Positions 134-1,573 of a DNA stretch of 2,543 nt are shown here, piece after piece. Location: assembly GCF_024298765.1 (NCBI RefSeq), contig NZ_CP101218.1. The stretch is one strand, 5' to 3'. Position numbers and translations under genes: made by a program. Below the pieces are notes generated by a model. That model did not search any database. It was not told the DNA's origin and saw nothing but the letters and a program-made list of their open reading frames with translations. How positions within the stretch are numbered: position 1 is the stretch's first letter; each line of letters begins with the position of its first letter. The stretch is from Escherichia coli. Its GTDB lineage: Bacteria; Pseudomonadota; Gammaproteobacteria; Enterobacterales; Enterobacteriaceae.

Positions 134-559
134 ATGACTAAAAATAAACGTAGTGGTTCAGAAGTACGGCAGAGAACTAAGGTTATCACCCTTAGAGTAA
201 ATAACAGAGTCGCAAGCGAAATCAGACGGCGAGCGAAGAACGAAGGACTGACAATTTCAGAATATATCAGGACGGCAAGTTTAAATAATGAAATAAAACA
301 GCGCGTACCTTCCAGGTATTTAGATGAATTAATCCGACTTGGTCGGATGCAGAAGAAATTATTTGATAAGGGAAAGCGGCCGAAGGATAAGGAGTACCTC
401 GAGGTGATGCATAAAATAATTTTACTTTGCGATGAAATGAAAATAGTAACGAAGCGAATTTCTGATGTATATAATGAAATGGATTTAATAAAGGATGAAA
501 TAAAAATAATAAAAAGGATACATAAAGATAAATATCCAGGTTCGGATTTATTCAAATAA
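134..559 (+). CDS. mobC: Ribbon-helix-helix DNA-binding protein, MobC/MbeC-like plasmid mobilization accessory protein (141 aa). The frame is open to the window start, so alternative starts at ATG 23, TTG 11 or off-window cannot be excluded.
   Basis: ORF track frame 11..559. ATG at 134 is preceded by GGAGAG with a 9-nt spacer. The N-terminal basic tail followed by RTKVITLRVNNRVASEIRRRAKNEGLTISEYIRTASLN fits the RHH beta-strand/helix/helix pattern (R-x-I-x-L-R-V ... G-L-T-I-S-E-Y-I-R) typical of MobC-type relaxosome accessory proteins; the C-terminal half is charged and helical. TAA stop at 557-559. Confidence 0.6.
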   Translation: MTKNKRSGSEVRQRTKVITLRVNNRVASEIRRRAKNEGLTISEYIRTASLNNEIKQRVPSRYLDELIRLGRMQKKLFDKGKRPKDKEYLEVMHKIILLCDEMKIVTKRISDVYNEMDLIKDEIKIIKRIHKDKYPGSDLFK

Positions 560-755: not shown

Positions 756-1307
756 TTAACTAGATTTATCCTCTTGTTTTTCAATTGTATTTTTTCTCTC
801 AATCACAGTTGTAAACGCGATTCTGTCACCATTAAAAACAAAGTTAGGGTTAATGAAATACCTTCCTTGTCGCATTGTTTTTGCAATTATTTTCGCTTTT
901 TCCAATTCATTAAGACCTCGCTTAAAGGTTGCAAGACTTAGTCGTAATGGTTGTTTACTCGCAGAAACTTGGCACTGAAGAAACGCTTCTAAAACTAAGG
1001 TATCCAAATCAACTTCGTCTTTTGAGAGTGCAGAGTTCTGAACGGACCAAACTAAAACACCGAAGGCTTTAATTCCCGCAGAAGATAGCTCAAAAGTTAA
1101 GCCAATATTTGCTGTAAAAAGTTTTACAAACTGTTCGCTATCAACACGTTTATATGTTGTTACGTGAGTACCTTGAACCTCACCTGTGTTCTGATTGACC
1201 AGGATGTTATCATCACGACCTAGACGCGAAAGCCTAACTTGCTTCCCCTTGACAGGTACAACCATTCCTTCTAAAAATGGGTTTTCTTTATAGCGACCGA
1301 AGCTCAT
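756..1307 (-). CDS. repL: Plasmid replication initiator, RepL family (winged-helix DNA-binding), 183 aa
   Basis: ORF track 756..1307 (-). ATG at 1305-1307 on the minus strand is preceded by AGGGGTG (SD-like) with about a 5-nt spacer. The protein carries motifs I recognise from RepL of staphylococcal pSN2-type plasmids and phage P1 RepL: NTGEV near the N-terminus, a central FVKLF...GL segment, and a C-terminal LNELEKAKIIAK...YFINPNFVFNGDRI (compare LKILEEGNIIKRK...LMLNPELLMRGDD). Family assignment is from memory, not a search. Confidence 0.8.
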   Translation of the reverse strand: MSFGRYKENPFLEGMVVPVKGKQVRLSRLGRDDNILVNQNTGEVQGTHVTTYKRVDSEQFVKLFTANIGLTFELSSAGIKAFGVLVWSVQNSALSKDEVDLDTLVLEAFLQCQVSASKQPLRLSLATFKRGLNELEKAKIIAKTMRQGRYFINPNFVFNGDRIAFTTVIERKNTIEKQEDKSS

Positions 1308-1338
1308 TTTTCACCCCTAAAATGATACGCAGAAGCTA

Positions 1339-1412: not shown

Positions 1413-1476
1413 ACAGATCCTGAAAACACGATCCCCATTTCATGCGGGTTGCGAGAGATTCCCTTCTTAGTTCTTA

Positions 1477-1510: not shown

Positions 1511-1515
1511 TTCTT

Positions 1516-1573
1516 TTCCGCTTCCTCGTCGATTCGCTCACTACGTTCGGTCACCGACTTGCGGCGAGCGGTA
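1516..1573. other. Primosome-assembly-site-like segment (ssi/pas) resembling the region just downstream of the pMB1/ColE1 origin
   Basis: Window sequence TTCCGCTTCCTCG...CGCTCACT...GTTCGG...TGCGGCGAGCGGTA shares, in the same order and orientation, an 11-13-mer, an 8-mer and a 14-mer with the pBR322/pUC backbone (CTTCCGCTTCCTCGCTCACTGACTCGCTGCGCTCGGTCGTTCGGCTGCGGCGAGCGGTATCAG) as I recall it. Not verified by a search. Confidence 0.4.

Follow-up and report, generated by a model that had tools for sequence, protein, structure and literature searches.

The gene at 756-1307 of this DNA raises the question of what it does for the molecule that carries it, and of how its RepL-type product came to lie beside sequences resembling those of ColE1. 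A sequence-only reading took it for a RepL-family initiator in an enterobacterial-style context that is GATC-rich and ColE1-like, and saw in this combination an exchange of modules between replicon types. We analysed the whole stretch of 2,543 nucleotides (the window) together with its relatives. The best overall explanation, which we regard as highly probable, is that the gene, repL, codes for the single-winged-helix initiator of a cryptic plasmid, with a putative operator and origin and a presumptive mode of replication.

It is strongly supported that the window is the entire circular cryptic plasmid of E. coli and Shigella, roughly 2.54 kb in size. Its ends join in tandem metagenome assemblies, and the circular plasmid pGF4-G from E. 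coli GF4 (NZ_CP172224.1, 2535 bp) covers 100% of the window with 99.2% nucleotide identity. The two differ by 8 bp in length and by about 0.8% substitutions, with nothing functional affected, and the RefSeq annotation of pGF4-G consists of RepL and MobA only, a gene pair identical to that of the window. The identical RepL protein is present in NCBI as WP_000007848.1, "replication/maintenance protein RepL", and occurs (cluster P0001) on about 785 contigs. The gene, its protein and the plasmid are already known, RefSeq carrying the same annotation, and RepL is not out of place in its enterobacterial setting, as had been supposed. The setting itself was correctly recognised: plasmids matching the window number hundreds and come from E. 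coli, Shigella and Klebsiella. In PLSDB, about 200 plasmids carry related repL genes; they come from Escherichia, Klebsiella, Bartonella, Zymomonas and Bacteroides (pBI143-like).

The repL coding sequence (756-1307, minus strand) is an intact, ATG-started open reading frame of 183 amino acids. Its start codon is backed by the N-terminus MS..RYKxNPF, conserved in homologues, and a Shine-Dalgarno sequence AGGGGTG can be read 4 nt before it (1312-1318, minus strand). The product is the only Rep candidate found on the 2.54-kb circle, its replication function being shown for homologues only, and the assignment of the gene as repL, sole replication gene of the plasmid, is strongly supported.

Membership of the protein in the RepL superfamily, together with pSN2 RepL, pBI143 RepA, pBGR1 Rep and the Reps of pHW126 and pIGMS31, is likewise strongly supported by sequence comparison. 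The Pfam model RepL (PF05732) matches residues 35-180 at profile positions 14-143 of 164, with 30.4 bits (gathering threshold 20.3) and an E-value of 3.4e-7, and no non-replication regulator matches better, so that the original family call stands. The score is modest; sister RepL proteins reach 29-30 bits, and the S. aureus reference RepL 242 bits. When a profile of 77 homologous sequences was compared by hhalign to S. aureus pSN2-family RepL, 118 columns were aligned with a probability of 93.6% and an E-value of 2e-7. In BLASTP, the Rep of a Col(IMGS31)-typed plasmid, which is pIGMS31-like and not pIGMS31 itself, was found with 32% identity (E 2e-25). Identity reaches 79.7% with pBGR1 Rep and about 31% with pBI143-like RepA.

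Structure prediction (pLDDT 81) gives a helix and strand order of a winged helix, which strongly supports RepL as a predicted small single-winged-helix protein with its core at residues 57-152 and a flexible N-terminus bearing the clade-specific RYKxNPF motif. The fold can be assigned to winged helices in general terms only, because a PDB sequence search returned nothing below E 0.6 and a Foldseek search of the model against PDB nothing below E 0.1; no NCBIfam model matches the protein either. Signs of an HUH or Rep_trans enzyme were sought as well: Pfam gave no match to such domains, the model displays no nuclease fold, and among 77 homologues there is neither a conserved histidine nor an invariant tyrosine.

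Upstream of repL, conserved hexamer positions point to a promoter on the minus strand (1339-1367), with a -35 element TTGTTT (1367-1362), a 17-nt spacer and a -10 element TATGAT (1344-1339). The patterns TTGnTT and TAnnAT keep their positions in six of seven aligned upstream regions (the exception is L007); a generic promoter scanner missed the promoter because its -35 element matches at only 3 of 6 positions. A palindrome with 11-bp perfect arms, GTAGCTCAAAA-N10-TTTTGAGCTAC (1353-1384), is superimposed on it, the repL-proximal arm (1353-1363) occupying the spacer between -35 and -10. Six of seven relatives have a palindrome at nearly this distance (that of L008 is placed further upstream), and changes in one arm are compensated in the other; the spacer of the window's palindrome is AT-rich. 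We propose the palindrome as the RepL operator and an origin binding site. It is joined by two direct 14-bp repeats, TTGAGCTACGGTAG (1376-1389) and TTGAGCTACCGTAG (1398-1411), which are placed 22 bp apart and present iteron-like putative RepL sites. The repeat core varies with three RepL residues: K129, N133 and R149 go with GCTCAA, and A129, A133 and V or W149 with TATCAA. This covariation makes the repeats over the repL promoter likely RepL binding sites.

Several other candidates in this region were abandoned. A third "iteron" at 1498-1509 was rejected, as plasmid pSCU-106-10 retains the sequence though its own iterons differ. TACTACG in the distal repeat was weighed as a nick site of the pMV158 type, but sister plasmids do not conserve it, and CTTGAT-like words in the palindrome spacer, considered as a pC194-type nick, are better explained by the conserved -35 hexamer. 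A cer/Xer site near 1478-1509 was dropped, its XerD arm being a poor match to the consensus. A scan for DnaA boxes gave no exact match; one-mismatch matches numbered 11, with 6 +/- 2.6 expected, and none of them lies in the repeat region.

Directly origin-distal to the repeats, a pair of GATC (Dam) sites flanks a conserved TTTTCAG (1416-1433). The pair is kept in enteric relatives, and the alphaproteobacterial plasmid pBGR1 has GATTC and GAATC in the same places. The description of the plasmid as GATC-rich does not hold for the window as a whole, which contains 7 sites against 8.5-9.5 expected; it fits only a local cluster adjoining the origin region, where six of the seven sites fall within 1416-1727 against 1.3 expected. 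Next comes a conserved box, TAAGAACTAAGAAGGGA in repL orientation (1460-1476, minus strand), whose position matches the "conserved region" (CR) of pHW126-like origins. Four of six aligned sister plasmids share its 15-nt core without change, and pBGR1 and a Zymomonas plasmid have a near-identical one, whatever the iteron class. In shuffle tests p was 0 for pBGR1 and Zymomonas and 0.015 for a Legionella plasmid; similarity to pIGMS31-like (p 0.115), pBI143-like and staphylococcal plasmids was not significant, and the box is absent from Col(MG828) and 1.5-kb plasmids. With no significant match to the pIGMS31-like plasmid, box and CR can be equated by position only.

Further upstream lies a PriA-type primosome assembly site (n'-pas, a single-strand initiation site; 1513-1573, minus strand), which is 81% identical to ColE1 1367-1307 over 62 nt (E 4e-9). 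With the geometry fixed by ColE1 RNAI (minus strand, 645-749), the strand equivalent to the active strand of ColE1 is the repL-sense strand. As single-stranded DNA, the pas strand folds no better than its shuffles (z -0.29). Most of the sister plasmids examined share the element, which also turns up in about 1900 PLSDB records. The ColE1-like context that had been described is thus borne out for the pas and not for the replicon: an Rfam search of the whole window (E <= 1) found neither RNAI/RNAII nor any other RNA, while the ColE1 control gave RNAI with 73.8 bits. The sequences called bom-like found no confirmation, the ColE1 nic GTGTATACTGGCTTAAC having no match in the window with up to 3 mismatches and the ColE1 bom area giving only GC-rich matches of 12-23 nt (E 0.6-2); in addition, positions 19-106 are 73% similar to a 1.5-kb plasmid.

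The remainder of the plasmid speaks to the origin of its modules. The gene mobA (134-559, plus strand) codes for a NikA-like ribbon-helix-helix relaxosome accessory protein (Pfam NikA-like, 61 bits; NCBIfam MobA NF041264, 99 bits with a cut-off of 80) and is context, outside the replication module. Between the convergent mobA and repL a perfect 14-bp hairpin (562-591) resembles a bidirectional terminator. A non-coding element at 1690-2022, delimited by composition and similarity, is GC-rich (58-65%) and dense in hairpins, and is 87-90% identical to counterparts on plasmids with different Rep proteins; RNAalifold found many invariant hairpins in it and essentially no covariation. Open reading frames of 127, 91 and 69 amino acids in the GC-rich and AT-rich regions have no Pfam match, and pSCU-106-10 does not preserve the 127-aa and 91-aa frames, only a 59-aa CDS being annotated there. 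Over the mobA backbone the window matches Col(MG828) 2.3-kb plasmids with 97-100% identity, while these have nothing that corresponds to positions 730-1480. Sequence comparison thus presents the repL cassette (about 730-1480) as one of several interchangeable RepL-type cassettes on shared small-plasmid backbones. As far as these alignments go, the module exchange is real, and it is between small plasmids of one broad kind. The original idea of exchange between replicon types survives as a cassette swap among similar small plasmids, and loses the pas as a token of exchange with ColE1, because pHW126-like modules as a rule have an ssi ahead of conserved region, iterons and rep.

Experiments on relatives guide the reading of the upstream region. 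In pHW126, pIGRK and pIGMS31, Rep is a dimeric wHTH protein that represses its own gene, the ssi is dispensable and prevents multimers, a nick was mapped just upstream of CR, and two-dimensional gels revealed both rolling-circle and theta intermediates (10.1101/2022.12.05.519187). From its own sequence and the comparison with relatives, RepL would bind a site of 10-14 bp that occurs three times directly upstream of its gene, as two direct repeats 22 bp apart and as one inverted copy forming the palindrome across the -35/-10 spacer. Such binding may repress repL transcription and at once define the origin. As pHW126-like modules and strand geometry suggest, initiation would take place in or next to the conserved box (1460-1476), with the leading strand running in the direction of repL transcription and the repL-sense strand being displaced. 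The pas, lying on the displaced strand just upstream of the origin, could then prime lagging-strand synthesis. On these grounds we lean slightly towards replication that is rolling-circle-like, or mixed rolling-circle and theta, over pure theta.

The most serious competitor, possible although we think it somewhat improbable, is pure theta replication under iteron control, where RepL melts the adjacent AT-rich stretch, recruits host helicase and primase and never nicks, the pas being an ordinary lagging-strand primosome site. The RepL fold suits it, as it is a winged helix only, free of nuclease motifs, and a recent initiator phylogeny places PF05732 in the supergroup of initiators with a single winged helix, to which the theta-type RepA_N belongs (10.1101/2024.09.03.610885). 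So do the AT-rich palindrome spacer and the combination of iteron-like repeats with a putative autoregulatory operator, noted as theta hallmarks for pIGMS31, which itself shows theta intermediates (10.1101/2022.12.05.519187). However, from an origin located at the repeats, the strand and side of the pas would be exposed only once the fork has circled the plasmid, and DnaA boxes are neither exact nor enriched at the origin. The pSN2 family, moreover, is classed as rolling-circle, with ssoA (PMC5703833), and pHW126 loses a duplicated origin as rolling-circle plasmids do, a two-origin deletion assay that supports this mode (PMC2831885). Against a nicking RepL stands its lack of a visible catalytic basis, given that HUH and Rep_trans motifs and an invariant tyrosine are all missing, and the published nicking by RepM also occurred non-specifically on pUC18 (10.1101/2022.12.05.519187). 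It is a rather unlikely proposal that RepL-superfamily proteins, this one included, might start rolling-circle-type replication with only a winged helix and RYKxNPF, either nicking at the TAAGAACTAAGAAGGGA box by an undescribed mechanism or recruiting a host nuclease. If true, the superfamily would form a class of rolling-circle initiators unrelated to HUH and Rep_trans enzymes, and the natural swaps of RepL cassette on a common backbone, with their covariation of recognition helix and iterons, would offer a ready-made test system.

Two further explanations remove the origin from the region upstream of repL. The protein could be a winged-helix transcriptional regulator only, replication being driven elsewhere, for example from a ColE1-like origin that is primed by RNA and lies in the GC-rich region by the pas. 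The GC-rich element and the pas are indeed common to plasmids with different "Rep" proteins, the element being present in three of three plasmids typed Col(MG828) by PLSDB whatever their Rep; ColE1 geometry puts the origin upstream of the pas, so that an origin in the GC-rich element would suit it equally well; and besides the modest Pfam score, a pIGMS31-like homologue has no Pfam match at all. We nevertheless consider it very improbable, as similarity to ColE1 is confined to the 62-nt pas, with its RNAs undetected in the window, and pBGR1, Zymomonas and pBI143-like plasmids retain the repL cassette and lack the GC-rich element. Homologues have also been linked to replication by experiment, pIGMS31 RepM being required for it (10.1101/2022.12.05.519187) and the RepL gene of pLA6_12 alone sufficing (PMC6789725). 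Slimmer still is the chance of a P1-type RepL with the origin inside its own coding sequence. The shared name recommends it, as do the AT-richness of repL (36-41% GC) and the location of P1 oriL inside repL, dependent on an AT-rich segment (PMC9948254; P1 annotation). P1 RepL, which had been put forward as a relative, nonetheless has no Pfam match at E <= 0.01, PF05732 included, gives E 4.4 in BLASTP against the window protein and reaches an hhalign probability of 12%, covering the HTH only; the conserved repeats, too, lie upstream of repL and not inside it. At the family level this reading is effectively refuted, and a joint phylogeny with P1 RepL would not be meaningful because the protein is no relative.

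The initiator reading, which we prefer, brings little by way of discovery: RefSeq already lists gene, protein and plasmid under this annotation, and small plasmids of proteobacteria commonly carry initiators of the RepL type. It is of use in correcting a name collision, the "RepL" of P1 standing outside the Pfam RepL family, and as a compact case of cassette exchange among tiny enterobacterial plasmids, a pattern also known from pBI143, whose versions diverge in repA. The plasmid also adds one more minimal member to a widespread family of initiators that may work by rolling circle, by theta or by both.

Among known systems, phage P1 shares with the window the name RepL alone, with no detectable homology, and ColE1 shares the 62-nt n'-pas, its RNAI/RNAII, ori and nic being absent from the window. 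The Col(MG828)-type 2.3-kb plasmids (e.g. pPK8275-2.3kb) share the backbone, with mobA, terminator and AT-rich region 97-100% identical, the GC-rich element 87% and the pas 72%. Their 165-aa RepL, in contrast, has no BLASTP similarity to that of the window and is homologous at profile level only (19% identity); it has links to Bacillus and Priestia RepL, and its repeats (GTAACGTGT...) differ from the window's. Staphylococcal pSN2-family RepL, the seed group of PF05732, shares a homologous winged-helix core (window residues 25-162 against 7-125, 24% identity), and both proteins are small and each the sole Rep of a tiny plasmid. The window protein differs in a 7-residue insertion near residue 90 and in about 18-24 extra N-terminal residues bearing RYKxNPF (residue 25 aligns with staphylococcal 7, and 35 with profile position 14), fewer than the 40 of the sequence-only reading, and the C-terminal 33 residues of staphylococcal RepL have no counterpart in it. 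The window has a Gram-negative host and a PriA-type pas, whereas the pSN2 family uses an RNA-polymerase-dependent ssoA (PMC5703833).

In pBGR1 of Bartonella grahamii, Zymomonas pZMOBP6, and Klebsiella and other E. coli RepL plasmids, RepL is 70-91% identical and the upstream architecture is the same, including the TAAGAACTAAGAAGGGA box, whereas the backbones differ and bring MOBV relaxases or other cargo. Neither the ColE1-like pas nor the GC-rich element is present in the alphaproteobacterial members, and pBGR1 has GANTC where enteric plasmids have GATC. The only experimentally dissected close relatives are the pHW126-like plasmids (pHW126, pIGRK, pIGMS31). They have four roughly 20-bp iterons, where the window has two direct and one inverted 10-14-bp repeat, and a MOBV relaxase in the transfer module, where the window has a NikA-like MobA and no relaxase; the GC content of the window is above the 31-37% reported for pHW126 and pHW121 (PMC2831885). 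An N-terminal K-NPF motif and a wHTH are common to the window RepL and the Rep of the Col(IMGS31)-typed plasmid, and an inverted repeat that may serve as operator at the rep promoter is, at sequence level, present in the window as in pHW126-like plasmids. The order of elements is also alike: ssi, CR, iterons, IR and rep in pHW126-like plasmids parallel pas, conserved box, repeats, inverted repeat and rep in the window.

The sequence-only reading placed the gene exactly: repL is an intact open reading frame of 183 amino acids (756..1307, minus strand), with an ATG start and a Shine-Dalgarno sequence, AGGGGTG, readable 4 nt upstream of it. Its product matches the Pfam family RepL (PF05732) with 30.4 bits, above the gathering threshold of 20.3 (E 3.4e-7), residues 35-180 being aligned to profile positions 14-143. 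No rival Pfam family comes anywhere near this score, and NCBIfam holds no model for the protein. An alignment of 77 homologues was drawn from a full scan with HMMER, covering 1.84 billion representatives (989 matches at E <= 0.001), and its profile matches RepL of the S. aureus pSN2 family with an hhalign probability of 93.6% (E 2e-7, 24% identity); the staphylococcal protein used scores 242 bits against PF05732. Because of these two matches the proposed RepL assignment is correct. The N-terminal extension over pSN2 RepL, previously put at 40 residues, amounts to about 18-24. It carries the motif RYKxNPF, with N9, P10 and F11 at least 90% conserved across the clade, and since this motif is conserved the extension is real, a start-codon artefact being excluded. 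The motif is also present in the pIGMS31-like Rep. A supposed kinship with RepL of phage P1 has to be dropped: the P1 protein has no Pfam match at E <= 0.01, reaches only E 4.4 against the window RepL by BLASTP, and is given a probability of 12% in a profile comparison that covers 38 generic HTH columns. Judged by these comparisons, the shared name is a collision. A crAssphage preprint says that its "RepL" search used PF01719, the family given as Rep_2 (pE194 type) in a staphylococcal review (PMC5703833). The name covers unrelated things, and pooling RepL annotations across papers requires a family check first.

The window is a complete plasmid, since tandem metagenome assemblies join its base 2543 to base 2. 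In RefSeq, plasmid pGF4-G (E. coli GF4; circular, 2535 bp) matches the whole window at 99.2%; its annotation comprises two genes and no more, RepL (WP_000007848.1) and MobA. An identical 183-aa protein is listed at NCBI as [quoted passage not shown] and is found on about 785 contigs (1496 index blocks). In a chromosome-sized record of 5.44 Mb (OU349840.1, 5,383,273-5,389,824) an identical repL, with an IS1 transposase next to it, is flanked by two copies of mobA that stand about 2.5 kb from each other; either a tandem copy of the plasmid has integrated beside IS1, or the assembly is at fault. Relatives were detected by tblastn on 196 PLSDB plasmids, from E. coli (54 records), Klebsiella, Arsenophonus, Bartonella, Zymomonas and Bacteroides/Parabacteroides, with RepL identities of 79.7% for pBGR1 of Bartonella, 72% for Zymomonas and about 31% for the pBI143-like plasmids of Bacteroides/Parabacteroides. 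RepL-type plasmids are present in many phyla (PMC6789725). The repL feature is an ordinary plasmid initiator, annotated already, and the remaining interest is confined to the mechanism of the RepL superfamily.

The original observation was thus largely right, and its interpretation partly right. What is ColE1-like in the surroundings of repL is one element, a PriA-type primosome assembly site (pas) at 1513-1573, which matches that of ColE1 at 81% over 62 nt (E 4e-9); neither RNAI/RNAII, for which the ColE1 control was positive, nor the ColE1 nic sequence is present in the window. A bom-like sequence is likewise not borne out, with nic absent and matches to the ColE1 bom area of just 12-23 nt, GC-rich, at E 0.6-2. 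Nor is the window rich in GATC: seven sites are observed against 8.5-9.5 expected, six of them clustered within 1416-1727, where 1.3 are expected. An 8-bp inverted repeat (TGTATTCG...CGAATACA) and a GC-rich motif, CCTGTCAGGGCAAGCCCCGACACCCC, lie within positions 19-106, a stretch with 73% similarity to a portion of a 1.5-kb plasmid on which a ColE1-like bom is present as well. The transfer gene content is a NikA-like ribbon-helix-helix MobA (NF041264; 134-559) alone, without relaxase, so any transfer would need a relaxase in trans.

Module exchange, also put forward by the sequence-only reading, is real, because segments of the window match different plasmids best, but its partners are small enterobacterial plasmids, all with RepL-type cassettes, and not a Firmicute or P1 module and a ColE1 replicon. 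Positions 2-729 and 2144-2543 (mobA, terminator and AT-rich region) are 97-100% identical to the 2.3-kb Col(MG828) plasmids. The repL cassette (730-1480) has no counterpart there and matches an E. coli plasmid of 2920 bp (NZ_CP041119.1) at 88% and pSCU-106-10 at 78%; the pas segment (1485-1622) matches Col(MG828) plasmids at 72%, and a GC-rich element (1693-2022) matches plasmids of 2.3, 2.9, 3.1 and 1.5 kb at 87-90%. The Col(MG828) plasmids code for a RepL of 165 amino acids without BLASTP similarity to the window RepL, a distant superfamily member by hhalign (93.9%, 19% identity), whose nearest relatives are RepL proteins of Bacillus and Priestia. A divergent rep gene on a conserved backbone is also the pattern of pBI143. 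On three metagenome contigs (L014, L019, L020) the window repL cassette and the 165-aa cassette are joined via the shared mobA backbone. The joins may be real cointegrates, or the assembler may have collapsed plasmids that reside together; whatever explains them, both cassettes seem to be present in the same samples.

The GC-rich element (1690-2022; 58-65% GC) is non-coding and dense in perfect hairpins, ATGCCCGTCAGGGCAT, CCCCTAACCAGGGG and GTCTGGGGTACTCCCCAGAC among them. It is kept at 87-90% on plasmids with three different Reps, namely the window RepL, the 165-aa RepL and a 158-aa HTH_36 protein, the last on 1.5-kb plasmids, and is the only sequence common to the three plasmids typed as Col(MG828) by PLSDB. 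It lacks Rfam matches, covariation and any credible ORF; it might serve as a single-strand origin, as a signal for transfer or as a resolution site.

Upstream of repL, in the orientation of the gene, the pas (1573-1513) is followed by a 17-nt box, TAAGAACTAAGAAGGGA (1476-1460), two GATC sites around TTTTCAG (1433-1416), two copies of a direct repeat 22 bp apart (1411-1398 and 1389-1376), an inverted copy (1363-1353) and, last, the -10 element, Shine-Dalgarno sequence and ATG. Together with the inverted copy, the second of the direct copies makes up a palindrome with perfect arms of 11 bp around an AT-rich spacer of 10 nt. This layout is common to seven plasmids with RepL proteins 69-91% identical. 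The repeat sequence varies by plasmid (GGTAGCTCAA, GTAAGCTCAA, CACGGCTCAA or GGTCTATCAA), both palindrome arms changing together in each. Among the seven, repeats with a TATCAA core (pSCU-106-10 and the Zymomonas plasmid) pair with A129, A133 and V/W149 of RepL, and those with a GCTCAA core with K129, N133 and R149. These residues belong to the recognition helix and wing (window ~861-923, minus strand), and their pairing with the repeat core is a candidate protein-DNA recognition code. TTGnTT and TAnnAT are both conserved, the former 17 nt upstream of the latter, which means that the spacer of the promoter is taken up by the proximal arm of the palindrome. We infer that the repeats at 1353-1411 are RepL binding sites, through which RepL would both repress its own gene and recognise the origin. 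A further iteron at 1498-1509, ATTTAGCTACCG, was rejected: it agrees at 11 of 12 positions, yet is kept in pSCU-106-10, whose iterons differ, and therefore belongs to the pas flank, being probably no RepL site.

The 15-nt core of the box is identical in four of six sister plasmids and near-identical in pBGR1 and the Zymomonas plasmid, independently of iteron class. A Legionella plasmid has the box too (p 0.015); similarity to pIGMS31-like, pBI143-like and staphylococcal plasmids is not significant. In enteric plasmids the two GATC sites flank the conserved TTTTCAG beside the repeats; in pBGR1 their places, some 100-125 nt upstream of rep, are taken by GATTC and GAATC, and in the Zymomonas plasmid one of the two places is taken by GAATC. 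GATC is the site of Dam and GANTC that of CcrM in alphaproteobacteria, and the two alphaproteobacterial examples hint at host-matched methylation control of origin or promoter.

The AlphaFold2 model of RepL, with the 77-sequence alignment as input (pLDDT 81, pTM 0.73), has a confident core at residues 57-152 in the order H-H-E-H-H-E-E and disorder at residues 20-34; named alongside it are ORC/Cdc6 winged-helix domains, PadR, Fur and HrcA. A phylogeny of initiators groups PF05732 with single-winged-helix initiators (10.1101/2024.09.03.610885). Invariant among the 77 homologues are P10, K62, A142 and G160; they have neither a conserved histidine nor an invariant tyrosine, so that an HUH-type or Rep_trans-type nuclease is ruled out.

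The window RepL shares 32% identity (E 2e-25) with Rep of a pIGMS31-like plasmid from Enterobacter, typed as Col(IMGS31), and this makes the literature on pHW126-like plasmids the decisive context. Reps of pHW126, pIGRK and pIGMS31 were tied to pSN2 RepL by PSI-BLAST, and pHW126 behaves like rolling-circle plasmids in deleting an origin that has been duplicated (PMC2831885). Their Rep, a wHTH protein that varies at its N-terminus, is dimeric and represses its own gene; supercoiled DNA is relaxed by it in vitro, the nick falling just upstream of the conserved region, and pUC18 was also nicked, non-specifically; loss of the single-strand initiation site (ssi) leads to multimerisation, and rolling-circle and theta intermediates are both seen in 2D gels (10.1101/2022.12.05.519187). 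Because RepL has no visible nuclease chemistry, the replication mode of the window plasmid stays in balance, a rolling-circle-like or mixed mode seeming slightly the likelier over pure theta.

ColE1 RNAI lies on the minus strand, so the ColE1 leading strand runs in the plus direction and the pas, downstream of ori, is on the displaced plus strand; its equivalent in the window is the minus, repL-sense strand. If the origin is at the box and repeats and fires toward repL, the pas would thus be exposed last. Such exposure would fit the classic arrangement, in which the single-strand origin lies just upstream of the double-strand origin. The module order of the window also matches that of pHW126, pIGRK and pIGMS31, which runs from ssi through a conserved region, four iterons and an inverted-repeat operator to rep (10.1101/2022.12.05.519187).
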